Positions 4,634 to 50,370 of a DNA stretch of 64,000 bases are shown in pieces. The stretch spans positions 42,482 through 106,481 of IMG/VR virus record IMGVR_UViG_3300047509_000156; one strand, 5' to 3'. The stretch comes from a virus. Positions within the stretch are counted from its first letter, which is position 1. Each line of letters opens with the position of its first letter. Both the position numbers and the translations under genes were made by a program. Under the pieces are notes generated by a model. The model saw only the letters and a list, made by a program, of their open reading frames with translations, made no database searches and was not told the origin of the DNA.

Positions 4634-5470
4634 CTACGCAATCAGTCTTCCGAGAGTCAACTTGTCCGACAGGTCGATCTGCCGCTTCCGCCGATCCGCC
4701 TGGGCATAGAGTGCCCGCATGAATCCTGGGTGCGCACGCAACTTGTCCAACGCCCGCGCCACCAGTTGCCGCACCCTCTCCCTGGTAATTCCCAACTCGT
4801 TGCCGATATCCTGTAACGTCCTATCCTCGAAGACGTGCAGGCAAAGAAGACGGAAATCGCGGTCGCTGTCCACGGTGATTTTGAGCAGCAAGAGCAGTTG
4901 CTCTGGTAACTCTTTCTCGACTTCCTCGGTTTCCTCTCGGTCGAGAACCTCGAAGATGTGGTTCTCCTCGCGATGTGATGACGGGTTGCCGTGAGAGTCG
5001 CTTACTCGCTCCAGTTCGCTGAAATGGATGGGAATGCGGATTTGGTTCTTGCTTCCACTCCGGTACTGAGGCCCGACACGCAGATCAGCCGATTCGGCTG
5101 CGATGCCGATGTATGAGCGTATCCAGTGGTAGGCAAAAGAGGAAAACTTGGCGCCAGTTTCCTCATCCCACGGCAAATCGCTGTAGGGGTGCCATGCCCA
5201 CGGAGTAATGTACCGCTGGGCGGCAACAGATAGTCCTATCCAGCCGGCGTCGATCAGGTCGTCGAAGTATTGATCGGTGATGGCTTTGAAACCAACAACG
5301 GCCCAGCCATAGCGCCGACGTGCCAGGGCGCAGGCGATCCGCCGCGCCTCCTTCCATACCAGTCCCTGGTTGTCGGTAACGAGTTGTTGCTCCTCGGGAG
5401 TCAGTTTTCGCAGGGGTGCGTACTTGACCCTACCCGAAAGGTGCCCAAGATGATGATTGTCGGCGTCCAT
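4634..5470 (-). CDS. Phage sigma70-family RNA polymerase sigma factor
   Basis: N.GLV...A, DDLIDAGWIGL, AKFSSFAYHWIR (region 2); TLQDIGNELGITRERVRQL..RALDKLR (region 4); AAGGAG RBS. Confidence 0.9.
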   Translation of the reverse strand: MDADNHHLGHLSGRVKYAPLRKLTPEEQQLVTDNQGLVWKEARRIACALARRRYGWAVVGFKAITDQYFDDLIDAGWIGLSVAAQRYITPWAWHPYSDLPWDEETGAKFSSFAYHWIRSYIGIAAESADLRVGPQYRSGSKNQIRIPIHFSELERVSDSHGNPSSHREENHIFEVLDREETEEVEKELPEQLLLLLKITVDSDRDFRLLCLHVFEDRTLQDIGNELGITRERVRQLVARALDKLRAHPGFMRALYAQADRRKRQIDLSDKLTLGRLIA

Positions 5471-20183: not shown

Positions 20184-20477
20184 TCACGAGACCTGCGGCA
20201 AGGGTCGGACGTGCCAGCGTCCCTTGACCTGGAAGCCCCAGAAGACGTTGGCGTCGTGCCATCCCTTCTGCCACTGCCGGTAACAGTGCCGGTCGTCGGC
20301 GTGACTGTAGGGGTTGTCCGACAGCCCCTTACCGGCGATGCGGTCGCTGGACCCGCGATTGAACGCTGTCGCCATCTGTTCGGTGAGCGTTTCCTTGTAC
20401 TCCTGTTTCAATCCGCCCCCCCGGTCATCCGAGGGGGAATTCTCGTCATAGCCTGGCATCTTCTCGTGGTCGATCAT
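20184..20477 (-). CDS. Rmf/CrpP-like small protein
   Basis: AFNRG....AG....NPY........W.KGW motif. Confidence 0.6.
   Translation of the reverse strand: MIDHEKMPGYDENSPSDDRGGGLKQEYKETLTEQMATAFNRGSSDRIAGKGLSDNPYSHADDRHCYRQWQKGWHDANVFWGFQVKGRWHVRPLPQVS
20405..20441 (-). CRISPR. Solitary CRISPR-repeat-like unit inside a CDS
   Basis: AATTCCCCCTCGGATGACCGGGGGGGCGGATTGAAAC; 9-bp stem (1 G-U) plus ATTGAAAC end. Confidence 0.6.
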
Positions 20478-22236: not shown

Positions 22237-22653
22237 TCAGAATCCTCCGCCCTGCGAGATGTAACCGGCGACCTTCTCGGGCAACGGTTCCGGCTTCACA
22301 TCGGCCAAGTCCATGCGTCCGAGAAACTCGATGGCTAAAGCACGGACGCAAAATGAGTACACGCCCTTACACGTCTTGATCCAGGGATGTCCGCGTACCT
22401 GGCCGTCTGGTTTGCTCCAGGCTTCGAGGAACTTGCACACCAGTTTATCCAGCGGCGTGCCGTACTGGATCGCCGTCGAAAACAGGATGGCCCAGTCGTC
22501 GGCCACTAGGCGGATGTCACCGTTGCCGACGACGAGGAACACCTCCCCCAACTTGCCGTCCTCATAGAGGCCGCAAGTCAGAAACACGTCCGTGCCTCCG
22601 ATATCGACGGACCATGTGAAGGATTTGCGACGGTCGGGGAGTTTACGGTACAC
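22237..22653 (-). CDS. Stand-alone TSCPD domain (class II RNR C-terminal-like)
   Basis: RKLPDRR, G.YEDG..GEVF, S.AIQYG.PL. Confidence 0.8.
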   Translation of the reverse strand: MYRKLPDRRKSFTWSVDIGGTDVFLTCGLYEDGKLGEVFLVVGNGDIRLVADDWAILFSTAIQYGTPLDKLVCKFLEAWSKPDGQVRGHPWIKTCKGVYSFCVRALAIEFLGRMDLADVKPEPLPEKVAGYISQGGGF

Positions 22654-22945
22654 CTTGCATCTCCTTGGATTCTCTCTGTCTTTGAATCGTCACCGCACGC
22701 CACATGGCTTCCAGAGTTTCGTGGAGATCCTTCATCTGATCGGCCTTGCCGCGAACGCCGGCACAGAGCATCTTCTTGATGGCGTGCTGCCGCGCCGGGC
22801 AGGTTATTCCGAACGCCTCCAGTACGCAGTACACGTCAACGAGGATAGGCTTGCCGTTGTCGTCTGCCGGGTGGATCAGACGGAGATACTTGGAGCCGCT
22901 GTGGCTCTGTATTGGCCTCTCGTAAATAGACGGGTCTTTTTTCAT
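22643..22945 (-). CDS. Conserved phage protein (DUF3310-like)
   Basis: DVY.VL.AF.ITCPA.QHAIKK.LCAG.RG. Confidence 0.75.
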   Translation of the reverse strand: MKKDPSIYERPIQSHSGSKYLRLIHPADDNGKPILVDVYCVLEAFGITCPARQHAIKKMLCAGVRGKADQMKDLHETLEAMWRAVTIQRQRESKEMQGVP

Positions 22946-22991
22946 GGTTGTTTCCCAGGCAGCCGGCGGTTCTCCTTGCCCACTATCTCCA

Positions 22992-23091
22992 GTTTCAATC
23001 CACAGCCAGCCCAGCGGCCGGCTGCACCGTCTCATCAGTCCGATCAGATTGGTGGTTTCAATCCACGCCTAACCCACATGGCCAGGCGCAC
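22992..23091 (-). CRISPR. CRISPR mini-array (2 repeats, one 27-nt spacer), type I-C-like repeats
   Basis: GTGCGCCTGGCCATGTGGGTTAGGCGTGGATTGAAAC - CACCAATCTGATCGGACTGATGAGACG - GTGCAGCCGGCCGCTGGGCTGGCTGTGGATTGAAAC. Confidence 0.8.
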
Positions 23092-23116
23092 GATTCCGCC
23101 GGCTGCCTGTTGATCG

Positions 23117-23962
23117 TCAGTGGTCGCGAACCCACACTGTCTCGACCATGCGCCTCTTGGATTCTCCCGATGCGGCGTTGTTCGGCAGCGTCCATTCCTG
23201 CTGCGTTGTGTGCTTGTTCAGCATCCGGTCGTAGAGGTCGTTGCGGTATCCCGAGAGGATAAACTTCGACTTACCGCGAAGCAACTGCTCCAGAAGCCTC
23301 TCGTGCTGTTCGACCGTCATCTCGTGCTGGTAGTCGTCCGTGCTGGCGCGGGTCTCGGGCATGTAGCTTGGATCTAGGTACAGGAGCGTGTTCTCGCCGT
23401 CCTGCTCGCGGCACACGTCGATGCCGTCGTGGTTGAGGATGACGACTCTCTTCAAACGGGCGTGGACCTCTGGAAGTCCCTCGATGCACGTCAGCCACGC
23501 GGATGCCTGCTCGTTCTGTCCACGGCGTGTCCTGTTCCGCGACAGTGGGGCGAAGTGTTTCATTCGCCCAGCGAGCGATTGGCGGCAGCAGATAAAGAAA
23601 CTACAGGCGCGGAGAACACAGGCTGCTGTTCCTTGCGTGGTGATTTCGCTGGAATCTGGAACACCTTTCCACCCGATATTCCTCAGAATTCCGGCGGAAA
23701 CAGTCCACTCGAACTCGCTAAACGGTGTCGCTTCGATGACACGGAAGAACGCCTCGAACGTATGCGGGTGACGGATAACAGTCCAGAAGTTTGTCAGGTG
23801 GCGGTAGAGGTCGTTCGCAACCTCGCTGACACCTTCCGGGTTCTTGGCGAGCAGGACAGACAATCCGCCAGCGAACGGCTCGACGTAGTGCAGGTGCGGT
23901 ATCGAGTCGGTAATCTCGACGATCCTGGCGGCAAGGTATGATTTTCCGCCATTCAGTGCCAC
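23117..23962 (-). CDS. Dam/D12-class DNA adenine methyltransferase (N-terminus disrupted)
   Basis: GGKSYLA, YVEPFAG, EVAND, YLDPSY; the KWH of the usual KWHGGK start is in another frame. Confidence 0.85.
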   Translation of the reverse strand: MALNGGKSYLAARIVEITDSIPHLHYVEPFAGGLSVLLAKNPEGVSEVANDLYRHLTNFWTVIRHPHTFEAFFRVIEATPFSEFEWTVSAGILRNIGWKGVPDSSEITTQGTAACVLRACSFFICCRQSLAGRMKHFAPLSRNRTRRGQNEQASAWLTCIEGLPEVHARLKRVVILNHDGIDVCREQDGENTLLYLDPSYMPETRASTDDYQHEMTVEQHERLLEQLLRGKSKFILSGYRNDLYDRMLNKHTTQQEWTLPNNAASGESKRRMVETVWVRDH

Positions 23963-24862: not shown

Positions 24863-24898
24863 GTTTCAATCCACAGCCAATATTGCGACCGGACGCAT
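24863..24898 (-). CRISPR. Solitary degenerate CRISPR repeat
   Basis: ATGCGTCCGGTCGCAATATTGGCTGTGGATTGAAAC; 27/36 identical to repeat 22992-23027. Confidence 0.65.
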
Positions 24899-25186
24899 CG
24901 GAAAAATCGCCCGCCGCCGGGTTGGACTGCAAACGACAAAGGTCTGGCGCCTCTCCAACGAGGATCGGCACTCCCAGCGGCGGGCGAAGTCACGTCTTAG
25001 GCTTATAAGTCTTCAGAGTGCCGTACACTCCACATCACCTAGCCTTTCCTTGTTTTGTGCTCGCCGGAGCATAGAAGAGAACCCCCAACCACGAGCGTCC
25101 TTTACCACCCTCCGGCGAGCCTGGCCTCTCGGGTGGCCTCGCGATGACCCGCGCCGGCAACGAGCCGGATAGTCTCCCGAGAAGGA

Positions 25187-25486: not shown

Positions 25487-25558
25487 GGTCCGTTCTCCGT
25501 TGTTTATGTCTTCCTCTGCACTATATACGCTCCTGTCTCTTGCGTGTGACAGGGAGAG

Positions 25559-25894: not shown

Positions 25895-28198
25895 CTAATC
25901 GGGGATTGGTTCGTCCGAGACGACGTAAACGTCTTCGTGTTGCGTTGGCGTACTGACCATTGACTGCGCCGCTCCCATAAGCGCCTTTTTGCGCTTGCCC
26001 TGCTGGGCAAGATGGTCCCAGCGCTCGCGGGGTAGGATGTTGTAGACGAGGGACAAATCAAGTCCGACAGCGTGCAGTTCATCCCTGTTTCTTGACTCGT
26101 TGATCCTTTTGAGACAATCGGCTTCAAAGACGGCAGGTTCCTTCCTGGCACCGATGACCAGGGAGGCGAGAAAACGCGACGATGCCTTGCTGGTGGCGAT
26201 GCCGAGATAGGCCATCAATTTGCATTGGCCGGGCGAAGGACCGCTCGCCTGCCAGGCATCCTCCTGAATGCCGCAGAGTGCAGCCACTCTGGCGGGGTCT
26301 GTCCGCAACCGCAAAAGTCCGATCATCCGGCCTGCCAATTTTCTGCTGGGCCGTGCCTCTAGTTTCATACCCAGCGAGTCGATGAATTTCATCTGACCAT
26401 CAGAGGCCAGGTTTGCCGGTGTTTCAAAAGGAGTGCTGTAGCCGATTTCGTTGACCGAGTAGCTGACCTCGGCGCCGGCACGGCTGCGCCGTTCAAACTC
26501 CTCGCGAGCCGCCTGTTCGGCTTCTTCGCGCTCAATACGGATACGCTCCTTGTCGACAGCATCCTGTCTCTTGGCCTCCTCGATGATTTCTTGAACGTCC
26601 ACAGAATCGTCCACGCCGGCAGCGGCGAGCAGCTTTTCCGCTTTCTCCTTGACCTCGTCCGGCAATCCCTCGGCGTAGATTTCAATGGTCGAAGCACAGT
26701 CGGCCAGGCCGGTTATGCCGACCAGATCGACGATGAGGGCGTTGGGCTTTTCGCTTGCCGCGATAGCCGCGCGCCGAGAGGTAGCGTCCGGGTACGTGTG
26801 TAGCTTCTTGGCGAGTGACCGCGCAGGTCGGCAGGCTCGTCCTTTCATTTGCTCGGCAAGAGAGGAGGCTTTTTTGCTGACGGGCCTGAGAACGGCGACA
26901 CAGGACACATCGGGGTCGTTGTAGCCCTCGCGACAAAGGCCGCAGACAGAGAGGAACTGAAACTGGCCGTTCTGGTGGCCTTCATAAACTTGCTTCCTCT
27001 CGTGGGGCGGCGAGGAGCCGTCGAGTTGTCGGGCGTTATCTCCCGACTTGGTGATACTTTCCTTTTCGATCATCTCGCCACACTTACAGACGGCGCCATC
27101 GCCGATCATGGCGGAGGGATACCATCGCGTCAGGCCACAGTCACAGCGAGCCTGGACGCGGGCGTTGATGTAGCGGGCGACGTTCTTCGACATTTCCACA
27201 CCGGGAGAAAAGATGAGCGTGCGCCGGTCTTCGACCAGATCGAGCAGCGGTTCCACCATTGCCGCCAGGTGTTCCTCCAGCGCTCTTTCCAGTGCCGCAT
27301 CGTCGTAGTCGCCATCAGTGCCAAAGAGTTCCGGGTTGCGAAAATCGACGCCGTCCACCTCGATGTAGCGCTGGATATAGGGCACAGCGTAGCCGTCCTT
27401 GACGGCACATCGTTTGACCGTACTGAAGAGGGGAAAGTCGATGGCGATGCCTGGGAATTGCTTGTGGCCGATGGACACTTGATCGAAGCGTTTGGGCGTT
27501 GCCGTCATGCCGAGGCGGCGATGGGAGGGGTTCTGGCTGAACCAGTCGGTAATGTGCCCCACCGAGGGTAATTTGTAGGCGTGCCGGTGTGCCTCGTCCC
27601 AGATGACCAGCCAGTCGAGTCGCCAGTCGAACTTATGCAGGCGGCTGACGATGTTGCCGCTCACTTCGGGCCGCTGCATCTTTTGCGTCATGTCTTCGAG
27701 GACGGCGGCGGTATCTCCTGCTTGCTCGATGTGCCGCAGATAGGTCTTGGCCATGCGTTTAGTCATGGCGCCAACCGAGGTGATGCCATACTTCGCCAAC
27801 TTGTCGAGTTGCTCTGGAGTGGGCGGTGATTCTCGCAAGAGGCTGGCGCGGCTGGCGACCACAATGCGCGGAACGTCGTCGTGGGGAACCTTTTCCGCCT
27901 CCATCTCGATGCCCGGCTCGATGCCGAGAAAGTCACGGATCTCCTGGGAAAACTGCCAGACAAGCTGTTTCTCGTAGGTGACGACGAAGATATGCGCCTT
28001 GTTGCTGCGGCGCATCCAGGTATCGCCAATGAGACAGGCGACGGGTGTTTTACCCGTGCCCGTGGCCATCCGCAACAGTACGCCTTCGATACCGCTGTCC
28101 CAGTGACGAAAAGCCACGTCGTGCGCTTCGGTCTGGTAGTCGCGCGGCGAGAGGCGAGTCGATTTGATGGACTTCTCAAACAGGTCTTGCTGTATCAC
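25895..28198 (-). CDS. SF2 (DEAH) helicase
   Basis: PRDYQ, ATGTGKT, DEAH, GMTAT, EGYNDP, QMKGR. Confidence 0.93.
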   Translation of the reverse strand: MIQQDLFEKSIKSTRLSPRDYQTEAHDVAFRHWDSGIEGVLLRMATGTGKTPVACLIGDTWMRRSNKAHIFVVTYEKQLVWQFSQEIRDFLGIEPGIEMEAEKVPHDDVPRIVVASRASLLRESPPTPEQLDKLAKYGITSVGAMTKRMAKTYLRHIEQAGDTAAVLEDMTQKMQRPEVSGNIVSRLHKFDWRLDWLVIWDEAHRHAYKLPSVGHITDWFSQNPSHRRLGMTATPKRFDQVSIGHKQFPGIAIDFPLFSTVKRCAVKDGYAVPYIQRYIEVDGVDFRNPELFGTDGDYDDAALERALEEHLAAMVEPLLDLVEDRRTLIFSPGVEMSKNVARYINARVQARCDCGLTRWYPSAMIGDGAVCKCGEMIEKESITKSGDNARQLDGSSPPHERKQVYEGHQNGQFQFLSVCGLCREGYNDPDVSCVAVLRPVSKKASSLAEQMKGRACRPARSLAKKLHTYPDATSRRAAIAASEKPNALIVDLVGITGLADCASTIEIYAEGLPDEVKEKAEKLLAAAGVDDSVDVQEIIEEAKRQDAVDKERIRIEREEAEQAAREEFERRSRAGAEVSYSVNEIGYSTPFETPANLASDGQMKFIDSLGMKLEARPSRKLAGRMIGLLRLRTDPARVAALCGIQEDAWQASGPSPGQCKLMAYLGIATSKASSRFLASLVIGARKEPAVFEADCLKRINESRNRDELHAVGLDLSLVYNILPRERWDHLAQQGKRKKALMGAAQSMVSTPTQHEDVYVVSDEPIPD

Positions 28199-29238
28199 TA
28201 TTTGACCCCCATCTGATCGTAGGCGTAGCGCGTGACGCGGCCCGTCTTGTGGCATTGCTTGCAGCCTTCTCCCCGGCAGAGAGGACAGGCACAGTGGCAC
28301 TTGGCCGAGCGCACTGTCTCACAGACCGACTTGAGTTTGTTGATGGCGCTCTTGCGGCGGTCCATGTCAAGGAGCCAGGGATCGTCCGGCATCGTCTCGG
28401 TGAACTTCATGAGTTGCCGGCACCACGACTCCAGTTTACTGTTGAGCCGCTTGATCTGTTGTTCGGTCGTTTCATCTTCGGGCGCTTCCGGCTCCTGGTT
28501 CAAGTCTTCATCAGTCTGCTCGGATAGCGTCTTGCTCTTTTTTTTGCCGCTGCCCTTGCCGAGATTGCGCTTCCTTGCCTTTTTACGCTTGTCTTCACAG
28601 GAGGCACAACCGACCACGACGCCGTTCTTCTTACACTGCGGGCAGAGGATCGGTTTCCCACCACCGGAAATCTGAGCAATCGTCTGCCCTGACTGGCCGT
28701 TGAGGATGACGGAACGGGCGCCATCGCCTTGCTCGGCAGCGGCAGCATCGACGCCGGCAGCGAACTGAGTGGCGTTCTTGACTGTGCGCTCAGAAACGCC
28801 GTGCTCTGAGGCCAGTTCTGCCGCCGTTTTATTTCCTCCCTGTTGGGGAGGAATCGGGCAAAATTTGCCCGATTCCTCCCCAACAGGTGCGCTATTGCTA
28901 CTGCGCGTAAGTTCTCTCTCCTTACCGAGATAGTACAATTTTTGCTCTGGAGTCGCGTTTCGCCTTCCGAACTGGTTTTGGATAATCCAGAGCAATGCCG
29001 CTTCGCGTGAAGGTAGCTCGATTTTCCTTGTAGGAATTTTGAGATGCTTTTCCTCTGCAATATCGAACCGCGTGTGCCCGTCGCCAAGAATCGGTTCGTC
29101 TTCTCCTGGCAGTTGAAGGAGGACAAGCGGGTCGATGTGCTGGCTCTTTTCGATCTCAGCTTCCAGGGTGCTGCGCTCCTCTTTGGTCAGGGCGGGGAGA
29201 TAGGACTTGAACTCCTGATCGATCTTGAAGGATTGCAT
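28198..29238 (-). CDS. ParB-like domain protein
   Basis: KID.EF...LP.LT.EE, DGHTR, NQFGRRN, HTH GVSERTV. Confidence 0.8.
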   Translation of the reverse strand: MQSFKIDQEFKSYLPALTKEERSTLEAEIEKSQHIDPLVLLQLPGEDEPILGDGHTRFDIAEEKHLKIPTRKIELPSREAALLWIIQNQFGRRNATPEQKLYYLGKERELTRSSNSAPVGEESGKFCPIPPQQGGNKTAAELASEHGVSERTVKNATQFAAGVDAAAAEQGDGARSVILNGQSGQTIAQISGGGKPILCPQCKKNGVVVGCASCEDKRKKARKRNLGKGSGKKKSKTLSEQTDEDLNQEPEAPEDETTEQQIKRLNSKLESWCRQLMKFTETMPDDPWLLDMDRRKSAINKLKSVCETVRSAKCHCACPLCRGEGCKQCHKTGRVTRYAYDQMGVK

Positions 29239-43691: not shown

Positions 43692-43967
43692 TCATGGTTC
43701 CTCTGGAATTGGATCGTAAGCGTGTTTGGCATACCCGCTTTCGTGGTAGTACGCTTCCGTATGACGCCACAACGTGAGAAGTTCGTCGGACCAGTGCGCG
43801 TTGCCGTGCGACAGCATTTGTGATACGTGTCTGCAAGCATTCGCCAGGTCTTCAGCGGTGTGCCAAGGACGTTTGTTCGTGCGGATCGCTTCTTCAAGTT
43901 CCGCTCGCTTCGTGCGCAGGAGCGTTTTCAACCGCTCCTCTTCACCCTTCAGGGAATCTTCGCTCAT
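43692..43967 (-). CDS. Hypothetical protein
   Basis: MSEDSLK.. with GAGG RBS. Confidence 0.5.
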   Translation of the reverse strand: MSEDSLKGEEERLKTLLRTKRAELEEAIRTNKRPWHTAEDLANACRHVSQMLSHGNAHWSDELLTLWRHTEAYYHESGYAKHAYDPIPEEP

Positions 43968-44449
43968 GATGTCCTCACAATACCCACAAGCAAGGAATAG
44001 CCCGCGTTCGTCTGGAGGGAATTGCACCCTCTGGCCTTGACGTTCGCCAGTACGCATGAGTAGCGAACAACCTTGCTCGTAGGTGTCTCATCGCCGGCCC
44101 CGTCGCCGGCCCTTCTTGTGGTTGATCTTCTTGTACGAATGGCGGGGGCGGGGTGCTGGGCGGTCGATGCGGAGAAACGGCCCTGCGCCGACTGCCAGAA
44201 TCGGTGGATGATCGAGAGCCCCTCCTTCTCCACGGTCTGCCACCAGTCCTCGGGGAGGACAGCCTGGACGTGGAGGGTGTGTTCCCCGCACGACAGGATC
44301 ATGTCGGGAGAGCCCACGCTCACCTGGACACGCGCTTTCCAACTCGGGCCGCGCAAGGGCGCATCGATACCCACGAGTGCCGGCAGGCAGCTTTCCGCCC
44401 AGGTCTGGACCAGGCGGGTGGCCAGGGTGAGGTCGTGTTGCGAGGGCAT
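43964..44449 (-). CDS. Hypothetical protein
   Basis: Shares a DW..V...GL motif with the ORF near 42900-43150. Confidence 0.45.
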   Translation of the reverse strand: MPSQHDLTLATRLVQTWAESCLPALVGIDAPLRGPSWKARVQVSVGSPDMILSCGEHTLHVQAVLPEDWWQTVEKEGLSIIHRFWQSAQGRFSASTAQHPAPAIRTRRSTTRRAGDGAGDETPTSKVVRYSCVLANVKARGCNSLQTNAGYSLLVGIVRTS

Positions 44450-45771: not shown

Positions 45772-45918
45772 AGCGGGTTCTCCTGGGAAAAACGGTTGCC
45801 TTGTTCTCTCTCGACGTTATACTATACGCAGTTGTCTCCTTCTTGTGACAGAGAGATCGGTAGAATCCAGAGAATATCGGTCACAGTCCGGATGAATCGG
45901 CGTATATCAAGTGTCGCC

Positions 45919-45955
45919 ATTTTCCCCCGGCCAAAATCCGGGGGCGGATTGAAAC
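45919..45955 (+). CRISPR. Solitary CRISPR-repeat-like unit in a 5' leader
   Basis: ATTTTCCCCCGGCCAAAATCCGGGGGCGGATTGAAAC, between promoter 45880-45907 and the RBS. Confidence 0.7.
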
Positions 45956-48973: not shown

Positions 48974-49356
48974 CGGATGGTATTGCGCCCGGCCTGCTGG
49001 TCGGGTGTGGATTGAAACGCCTGAAGCGCCATGATCTCCTGTTGCTTCCTCTCGATCTCCCTGGCCTTCTCCTCGCTCTTGCGGAGTTCCGCTGCCTCGA
49101 TGGCGGCGGCCAGGTCATCGGCACAGTGCCCGATCAGTGCCTTGGCCTGGTCGATCGACAGGGTGATCTCTTCGTGGGTCGCCGTGGGTGTCGGTCCGGA
49201 GTGGTGCATAAGAGGAGGAAGGGGCCGGCGGATCTTGATGGACGTACCGGAGGCGAGGATCAAGATGGCGTCGGGAGGGAGGGCTTTCTTGGCCATGTGG
49301 GACAACCTTACGGGTGGGGGCGGAATCGGCTCTGGGAGGCGGTAAACGTGGTTCAT
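48970..49356 (-). CDS. Hypothetical protein
   Basis: Coupled ORF; C-terminus encoded by the antisense of a CRISPR-like repeat. Confidence 0.55.
   Translation of the reverse strand: MNHVYRLPEPIPPPPVRLSHMAKKALPPDAILILASGTSIKIRRPLPPLMHHSGPTPTATHEEITLSIDQAKALIGHCADDLAAAIEAAELRKSEEKAREIERKQQEIMALQAFQSTPDQQAGRNTIR
48983..49018 (+). CRISPR. Solitary CRISPR-repeat-like unit
   Basis: TTGCGCCCGGCCTGCTGGTCGGGTGTGGATTGAAAC; 9-bp stem with 2 G-U pairs. Confidence 0.7.
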
Positions 49357-49984: not shown

Positions 49985-50370
49985 ATGAATCACATTGAAG
50001 CCTTGCGGAATCTCCAGCAGGAGACTGGGCACCCCGGTCACGAACTGGGTACGTTCCTGCTCCAGAACAGCAACTCGCTGCCTTACCTCGCGGAGCAGTT
50101 GAAGTTTCAATCCCCTCCTTCGCGGGGCACTTCTGCGGACTCAAGGAGAAGAACGATCTGGACGCACACCGCTGGCGCGATTACGAATTGGTGGAAGTCG
50201 GATGGATTAACGGCGTGAATCCGAAGACGGCCCGCTCGCTTGTTGAGGCCGGCGTTCTGGTCGAGGACATGCCTTTCGATATGGACGCGAACACCAACTC
50301 CCATGTTCGCCTACCACGGCTGGAAGAGGTGTATCCGAGAATCGGCAAGCCGCTGATCGATGTTCTTTGA
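49985..50370 (+). pseudogene. Gene apparently interrupted by a CRISPR-like repeat
   Basis: Own promoter at 49924; MNHIEAL..EQLK in one frame and KEKNDL..VEAGVL in another, flanking the repeat. Confidence 0.5.
50104..50140 (-). CRISPR. Solitary type III-like CRISPR repeat
   Basis: GTCCGCAGAAGTGCCCCGCGAAGGAGGGGATTGAAAC, 37 nt with CCCC/GGGG stem. Confidence 0.7.

Follow-up and report, generated by a model that had tools for sequence, protein, structure and literature searches.

What does a CRISPR-like repeat-spacer-repeat unit do between two protein genes of a phage in whose genome searches for cas5d, cas7 and cas1 found none, although control genomes gave matches, and found no Cas5/6/7-like RNase either? 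The unit lies in an uncultured virus (IMG/VR record IMGVR_UViG_3300047509_000156), whose complete record of 106,481 bp carries direct terminal repeats. The window analysed here is its right-hand 64 kb (64,000 nt), and all coordinates are those of the window unless stated otherwise.

Layout of the cassette in its operon

The cassette fills a 171-nt intergenic gap on the minus strand, which extends from the stop codon of a Dam-type methyltransferase gene (23117-23119) to the ATG of the next gene (22943-22945). Read along the minus strand, the Dam stop codon TGA (23119-23117) is followed by 7 nt, the 5' arm of an inverted repeat (23109-23096), 4 nt, a first repeat (R1, 23091-23055), a spacer-like segment (23054-23028), a second repeat (R2, 23027-22992), 22 nt, the 3' arm (22969-22956), 10 nt and the ATG (22945-22943). 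The spacer-like segment measures 27 nt, or 26 nt if R2 begins at 23028 as in the Rfam alignment. The features of the cassette and its neighbours are as follows.

25895-28300, minus strand: DEAD/ResIII helicase, the gene upstream of Dam in the operon, with small ORFs between them
23117-23962, minus strand: intact Dam-type (D12 class) adenine methyltransferase (Pfam PF02086, E 3.5e-17)
23096-23109, minus strand: 5' arm of the closing stem, a perfect 14-bp inverted repeat unique in the genome, beginning 7 nt past the Dam stop
23055-23091, minus strand: R1, a 37-nt CRISPR-type repeat with a 10-bp hairpin, a 5-nt loop and a 10-nt single-stranded tail, GGATTGAAAC (Rfam CRISPR-DR9)
23028-23054, minus strand: spacer-like segment of 26-27 nt with a weak internal hairpin (sequence, folding)
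22992-23027, minus strand: R2, a CRISPR-type repeat of 36-37 nt with a 10-bp hairpin, a 4-nt loop and the same tail as R1 (Rfam CRISPR-DR9)
22970-22991, minus strand: 22-nt linker with an AAGGAG motif 26 nt upstream of the ATG
22956-22969, minus strand: 3' arm of the closing stem (inverted repeat, pairing probability 1.00), stopping 10 nt short of the next ATG
22643-22945, minus strand: downstream gene for a small phage protein of 100 aa (PHROG 2452, E 1.3e-21)

The first-pass annotation had described a unit set between the Dam stop and the next gene start and enclosed by a perfect 14-bp inverted repeat at 22956-22969 and 23096-23109. Both statements are exact: the arms are 126 nt apart, and mismatches bound the inverted repeat on both sides. 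The genes around the cassette, namely those for the helicase, the small ORFs, Dam, the 100-aa protein, a RusA resolvase and an MT-A70 methyltransferase, all lie on the minus strand. No phage-type promoter motif was found near the cassette, the nearest on this strand being at 25525-25550, and neither a sigma-70-like promoter nor a terminator was found to flank it; there is also no leader directly upstream. Since no promoter or terminator flanks the cassette, its co-transcription with Dam is the simplest reading.

The possibility that the element had split a gene is ruled out, because the homologues of the downstream 100-aa protein are stand-alone ORFs of 76-83 aa and Dam is full length, its relatives aligning over 98-99% of the protein. 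Within the spacer, an ATG (23035-23033) is in frame with the downstream gene and opens a 130-aa ORF (22643-23035, minus strand) that covers R2 and the 3' arm. Homologues give this extension no support, and automatic gene callers could mask the mini-array there.

Identity of the repeats and the solitary mimics

Both repeats align at full length, over all 37 positions, with the Rfam family CRISPR-DR9 (R1, 26.9 bits, E 3.4e-5 per genome; R2, 32.3 bits, E 8.3e-7 per genome). The same holds for all six phage units, comprising R1, R2 and the four solitary units listed below, with E values from 2.6e-7 to 2e-3 per genome. The family model describes a 37-nt repeat with a 9-bp stem and a 4-nt loop and has a curated gathering score of 45 bits. 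All phage units score under this cut-off, and by Rfam's criterion R1 and R2 are diverged relatives or mimics and not CRISPR-DR9 members.

The predicted folds have the shape of CRISPR repeats. R1 folds with -17 kcal/mol (z -3.6) and R2 with -20.7 kcal/mol (z -4.7), and these two and the solitary unit at 48982-49018 each form a 10-bp hairpin with a 4-5-nt loop and a free 10-nt tail (z -3.6 to -4.7). The geometry that was looked for, a hairpin of 9-10 bp, a loop of 4-5 nt and a single-stranded tail of 10-11 nt ending ATTGAAAC, is present. The terminal 12 nt of R1 and R2 are identical, and their last 8-11 nt are the conserved crRNA 5' handle. This 12-mer also ends the repeats of more than 100 arrays in viral contigs, and the 10-mer tail occurs seven times in the window, against 0.1-3 expected.

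Covariation among the six units follows the hairpin. In the aligned register, 90% of the stem cells pair, compared with 37-50% in slid registers; seven of the ten stem pairs are altered on both sides across the units, and none of 500 shuffles matches this covariation. Between R1 and R2, three stem pairs are swapped through fully compensatory changes. The covariation could partly stem from the separate capture of host repeats that already differed, and not from selection within the phage.

We built a covariance model from the six phage units only and used a genuine array as an outside control. The model matches all 66 repeats of an array of Deinococcus aetherius (plasmid pDAETH-1, NZ_AP026561.1) with 38.7 bits each, and about 13 kb from this array the plasmid encodes Cas5d and Cas8c/Csd1, the type I-C signature. 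R1 is identical to the Deinococcus repeat at 29 of 37 positions and R2 at 30 of 37, so that each is nearer to the Deinococcus repeat than to the other. The Thermus type I-C repeat is likewise 37 nt long with the geometry of the phage units (PMC6452258, PMC12102369). The alignment to CRISPR-DR9, the hairpin covariation, the Deinococcus control and the Thermus geometry together therefore place the phage units, as judged from sequence, in the long-repeat (37-nt) type I-C repeat family as diverged versions, and the type I-C-style repeat-spacer-repeat proposed in the first-pass annotation is a reasonable subtype call (DR9, the Deinococcus array and the Thermus tables).

The likeness to the 37-nt I-C repeats of Deinococcus and Thermus extends over the length, the 9-10-bp stem, the 4-5-nt loop and the 11-nt tail ending GGATTGAAAC, with 78-81% identity to R1 and R2. 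Genuine arrays of these genera differ from the phage cassette in having identical repeats, many units, cas genes nearby and spacers of 31-38 nt (up to 42 nt in Thermus). The dissimilarity of R1 and R2, remarked upon at first reading, stands at 10 differing positions out of 37 (27 identical, 73% identity), and therefore the two cannot both equal a single host repeat.

A separate observation concerns D. aetherius itself. Between the I-C cas genes and the 66-repeat array of NZ_AP026561.1, beside a WYL-domain regulator, lies a solitary degenerate 37-nt I-C repeat (examined segment L132, positions 4687-4790), with a GC hairpin and a T-run about 40 nt further on. It may be a host crRNA-like regulatory unit.

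Outside the cassette, the following solitary repeat mimics were found in the window.

24863-24899, minus strand: mimic with a weak hairpin in the cassette operon, 15 nt upstream of a ribosome-binding site and ATG (DR9 22.2 bits, six-unit model 44.1)
20405-20442, minus strand: mimic with a C-rich stem in the cassette operon (DR9 23.7 bits)
45919-45955, plus strand: mimic directly downstream of a phage cassette promoter (DR9 21 bits; promoter motif 45880-45905)
48982-49018, plus strand: the best DR9 match of the genome (34 bits, E 2.6e-7; 10-bp hairpin, z -4.0)
50104-50131, minus strand: doubtful weak mimic with the same 10-nt tail

The mimics fall into at least two stem families, one G/C-mixed and one with a C-run, and three of the five mimic loci lie in the minus-strand operon of the mini-array. 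The units share the strand of their flanking genes, and units other than the cassette are also placed just upstream of start codons. The unit at 24863-24899 has a poor hairpin (z 0.24). Just upstream of it, 24900-24990 (minus strand) holds a GC-rich, long-range inverted repeat whose loop measures about 50 nt and which ends in a T-run. The unit at 20405-20442 is inside a 97-aa ORF (20184-20477, minus strand) whose ATG shares nucleotides with the preceding stop codon (ATGA); because of this position, it may be translated as well as transcribed. A feature of solitary RNA anti-CRISPR repeats (Racrs), that a single unit lies more than 100 bp from another, is seen in all four solitary units, which are putative Racr-like candidates, and fails in R1 and R2, whose starts are 63 nt apart.

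The short spacer and the role of the cassette

The spacer-like segment departs from ordinary arrays. It had been called short, and the genuine Deinococcus array bears this out: its 65 spacers measure 31-38 nt (mode 35), and the 26-27 nt of the phage segment lie under all of them, 4-11 nt below. Thermus I-C spacers measure 33-42 nt (PMC6452258, PMC12102369). With diverged repeats, a short spacer, no leader and no cas5d, cas7 or cas1, the cassette does not qualify as a canonical CRISPR array. Short pseudo-spacers and degenerate repeats are hallmarks of CreR/CreA and of viral Cracr RNAs, type I-C included (bioRxiv 10.1101/2024.10.29.618823; PMC10120712). Since its repeats are diverged and its spacer is shortened, the cassette fits Cracr/Racr-type RNAs and not the arrays of inter-virus conflict. 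Our best explanation, which we hold tentatively, is that the cassette is a crRNA-like RNA anti-CRISPR that would imitate a host type I-C unit and thereby occupy and redirect the host I-C complex.

The closest likeness is to the Cracr RNAs. As in these, the cassette is located in a phage without cas genes and outside any CRISPR-cas locus, is built as degenerate repeat, short pseudo-spacer and degenerate repeat of a type I repeat family, and is co-encoded with solitary mimics, a combination that the Cracr authors say acts in concert. It differs in three respects. A Cracr is defined by a match to host CreR/CreA or a promoter, with at least nine PAM-proximal matches to the host CreR/CreA pseudo-spacer or to a cas/creT promoter, whereas none is known for the phage cassette. 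Cracrs are reported from three phyla, and Planctomycetota, at which a hint alone points as the likely host phylum, is outside these. Finally, the phage unit sits between two protein genes within a 14-bp stem, whereas the paper mentions no such stem and the term "inverted repeat" is absent from the preprint (bioRxiv 10.1101/2024.10.29.618823). CreR/CreA (bioRxiv 10.1101/2023.03.10.532045; PMC10120712) also have one or both repeats diverged and the spacer shortened, and act through partial complementarity without cleavage; however, they are found inside cellular CRISPR-cas loci and target their own cas or toxin promoter, whereas the cassette is in a phage and away from cas genes.

Racrs are related in another way. 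RacrIC1, a solitary type I-C repeat co-transcribed with a gene, was inhibitory in experiments (Camara-Wilpert et al. 2023, PMC10651486). Like it, the phage units are type I-C repeat mimics with hairpin and handle kept, and the cassette appears to be transcribed with a neighbouring protein gene, as RacrIC1 is, 11 nt after acrIC5 on one transcript (PMC10651486). The four solitary units fit the class directly. The cassette does not, since Racrs are single repeats whereas it consists of repeat, spacer and repeat, with no known acr gene adjoining. Two-repeat units with the same tail, non-identical repeats and periods of 57-62 nt also occur in six IMG/VR contigs (L068, L085, L061, L107, L072 and L063), some of them with compensatory stems; these units look like further I-C crRNA-like anti-CRISPR candidates.

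For the crRNA-like RNA, we infer a course that runs from transcription through Cas5 processing and Cascade loading to repression. The cassette would be transcribed within the minus-strand early operon (helicase, Dam, cassette, small protein, RusA and MT-A70). The host Cas5 endoribonuclease would cut at the 3' base of each repeat hairpin, which is predicted to release a crRNA-like RNA of about 64 nt composed of an 11-nt 5' handle, the 26-27-nt pseudo-spacer and the R2 hairpin. Loaded with host Cas5, Cas7 and Cas8, this RNA would form a shortened Cascade that rivals those with immune crRNAs. Given a short pseudo-spacer and degenerate repeats, features also of CreR/CreA/Cracr RNAs, the complex would probably bind without cutting and might repress a host promoter, such as that of cas genes, an associated toxin or a defence gene. 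The four solitary mimics may add pure decoy capacity in the manner of Racrs. Several observations count against this explanation, namely that no target was found, that the Rfam scores are below the cut-off, that the pseudo-spacer is predicted to pair partly with itself and that no relative carries the cassette.

The search for a target covered viral, metagenomic and cellular sequences. Against the phage genome itself, a seed-weighted comparison gave a best seed run of 10 and a best total of 18/27, both inside the range of shuffled controls, so the earlier remark that the spacer has no match in the window extends to the whole phage genome at the level of these controls. A 12/13-nt complementarity (10 nt exact) exists between spacer positions 23037-23049 and the coding region of the downstream gene (22734-22746, plus strand); it has no seed or PAM match and is not significant genome-wide. 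Among the 2.9 million viral contigs of IMG/VR, we found no protospacer with the full spacer (every sixth position free), no match to a TTC PAM followed by 15 nt of the spacer, and no second guide copy with the junction of the repeat tail and the first 9 nt of the spacer. A 22-nt version of the spacer gave nine matches in JGI metagenomes, about the chance expectation, and none extends past the forced positions. In GTDB genomes, the tail plus 9-nt junction gave a single match, in a Latescibacterota MAG, which shares only the 9 nt and comes, as an ordinary spacer unrelated to that of the phage, from a canonical 32-nt I-C array. The whole cassette had no match in GenBank phages. Thus neither a PAM-adjacent nor a full protospacer emerged from the phage, IMG/VR, JGI metagenomes, GTDB genomes or GenBank phages.

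Further comparisons were made with related repeats. When 896 spacers of 111 viral loci whose repeats end in the same tail were compared with the phage, only chance matches of 13-18 nt resulted, and these loci had no similar repeats, and a scan of viral contigs for a DR9-like 5' stem with the tail gave none. Against plasmids, R1 had no match, and the units at 48982-49018 and 20405-20442 gave noise. As for the host, TIGR02996, the Gemmata repeat-companion family, is over its curated cut-off in two phage ORFs (1373-1492 and 42238-42354, both on the minus strand; record positions 43854-43973 and 84719-84835) and weaker in a third. This is the only clue to the host, which is possibly Gemmata-like (Planctomycetota). 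Searches with Dam, the 100-aa protein and the helicase gave relatives of no more than 61% identity, and none has the repeat units or the cassette; therefore, relatives provide no evidence of conservation or evolutionary replication.

A possible though on balance unlikely reading is that R1 and R2 are two Racr-like mimics in chance tandem, a pure decoy that draws Cas5 and Cas7 into aberrant subcomplexes and contains no guide information. With four solitary mimics in the same phage, decoy use is evidently its strategy, the spacer target is absent from every collection searched, and the Cracr authors regard repeat-like elements as likely Racrs when no spacer match exists (bioRxiv 10.1101/2024.10.29.618823); RacrIC1, moreover, is active as a single repeat (PMC10651486). 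However, R1 and R2 are spaced for a crRNA-like product, whereas all other phage units are solitary, and two repeats around a shortened spacer are what marks out regulatory crRNA-like RNAs. The absence of a target is weak evidence here, because host genomes were outside the searches.

The first-pass annotation had offered two targets for a guide, a host cas promoter or a competing phage. In the latter case the cassette would be a mini-array that arms the host Cascade to destroy a competing phage or plasmid, as in the portogloboviruses SPV1 and SPV2 (Medvedeva et al. 2019, reviewed in PMC11656645). Arrays of one or two spacers that are carried by viruses and rely on host Cas proteins form a known class with experimental support (PMC11656645). 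The cassette resembles the one-spacer arrays of SPV1 and SPV2 in its reliance on host Cas, and it has the right orientation and two repeats predicted to be processable. However, those arrays share their repeats exactly with the host, and their spacers are of normal length and match related viruses (PMC11656645), whereas the phage repeats are diverged, to 73% mutual identity, the spacer is 4-11 nt short of those in the Deinococcus array, and no protospacer was found in the 2.9 million viral contigs or in GenBank phages. The lack of a viral protospacer in these collections weakens the guide against a competing phage to a very unlikely option and leaves the reading of a host cas promoter as target unaffected.

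The closing stem and its possible meaning

The arms of the closing stem occur nowhere else in the 106-kb genome, in which Markov shuffles lead one to expect about 0.2 perfect inverted repeats of at least 14 bp within 200 nt; a multi-copy MITE is rejected on account of this uniqueness. When an mRNA context of 800 nt was folded, as the first-pass annotation had suggested doing, the predicted probability of pairing was 1.00 for all 14 stem pairs and 0.95 for the two repeat hairpins. With the 5' arm scrambled in silico, the 3' arm was free to invade the unit, and the probability of the R1 or R2 hairpin sometimes fell to 0.14. The start region of the downstream gene was predicted to be about equally accessible whether the stem is present or not. 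Complementary flanks are absent from all 35 other viral two-repeat units that share the tail, and the stem is accordingly rejected as a general feature of viral mini-arrays. Long perfect hairpins of at least 14 bp also occur elsewhere in the genome, at 28839-28874 and about 28 kb ahead of the first position of the window, and probably serve as terminators or in regulation.

A 9-mer of the 5' arm recurs in the 5' half of the R2 stem. The 3' arm, when extended by the GGAAAC that comes after it, is similar to the 3' portion of R2, and none of 500 shuffles aligns as well. Because both arms resemble parts of the R2 stem, the closing stem seems to be derived from an R2-like repeat, as a third repeat hairpin split around the unit. 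When the 154-nt cassette is deleted in silico, a stop-to-start junction of 17 nt with a Shine-Dalgarno-like motif remains, and the nearest Dam relative, in which the cassette is absent, has a junction of 28 nt. The cassette, we infer, was inserted where the two genes lay close together.

As the last step of the crRNA-like mechanism, the stem would loop the insert out of what was once a 17-nt junction, insulate the repeat hairpins and keep them folded, and tether the mRNA halves after Cas5 cleavage. That the stem is a functional invention and not a scar, with a split repeat hairpin allowing a CRISPR-mimic RNA to nest in a tightly coupled operon, is doubtful, and we rate it as rather improbable. 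If it were true, the folding of both Cas-binding hairpins would be assured, the mRNA halves would stay tethered after cleavage or the expression of the downstream gene would report host Cas activity, and the stem would represent a previously undescribed RNA anti-CRISPR architecture, in a phage of a phylum without known examples.

We give little probability to the reading that the cassette is a cis-acting mRNA element, such as a processing site for RNase III or another enzyme, a stabiliser, a device for translational coupling or a sensor of Cas activity for the downstream gene, its CRISPR-like shape being either used for cleavage or incidental. The cassette is exactly at a stop-to-start junction, whose 17 nt, motif and 28-nt counterpart in the closest Dam relative are consistent with such a role, as are the other units just 5' of start codons and a stem predicted to be fully formed with no flanking promoter or terminator. 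A purely phage-internal role, however, leaves unexplained why a CRISPR repeat family is matched over its full length and why six copies have kept the crRNA-handle tail invariant; the phage has no Cas5/6/7-like RNase, and the stem leaves the accessibility of the start region almost unchanged. Passenger DNA, that is, a decaying fragment of a host array or a host crRNA-like gene that was acquired by recombination and is now functionless, is equally far from likely: there is one known copy, relatives lack it, the units score under the Rfam cut-off and the hairpin of unit 24863 is poor, but R1 and R2 have kept 10-bp hairpins through three fully compensatory swaps with an invariant tail, the closing stem is perfect, and the insert sits precisely between intact genes of a tightly packed genome.

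Under the most likely readings, the crRNA-like anti-CRISPR and the decoy, the element adds one more case to an established type. What sets it apart is the stem around it, its occurrence beside four solitary mimics and the probable phylum of its host. As a class, RNA anti-CRISPRs are young (Racr 2023, Cracr 2024-26), and most come from Pseudomonadota, Bacillota and Actinomycetota. If the cassette is real, the strategy reaches an uncultured 106-kb phage of a probable Gemmata-like Planctomycetota host, and a single phage pairs a crRNA-like unit with four solitary decoys in at least two repeat variants. For the mining of phage genomes, the locus gives the hint that gene callers can conceal such units within extended ORFs. 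The stem-enclosed layout would amount to a simple design rule, by which a processable guide RNA is carried inside a polycistronic mRNA while its neighbours are left undisturbed.
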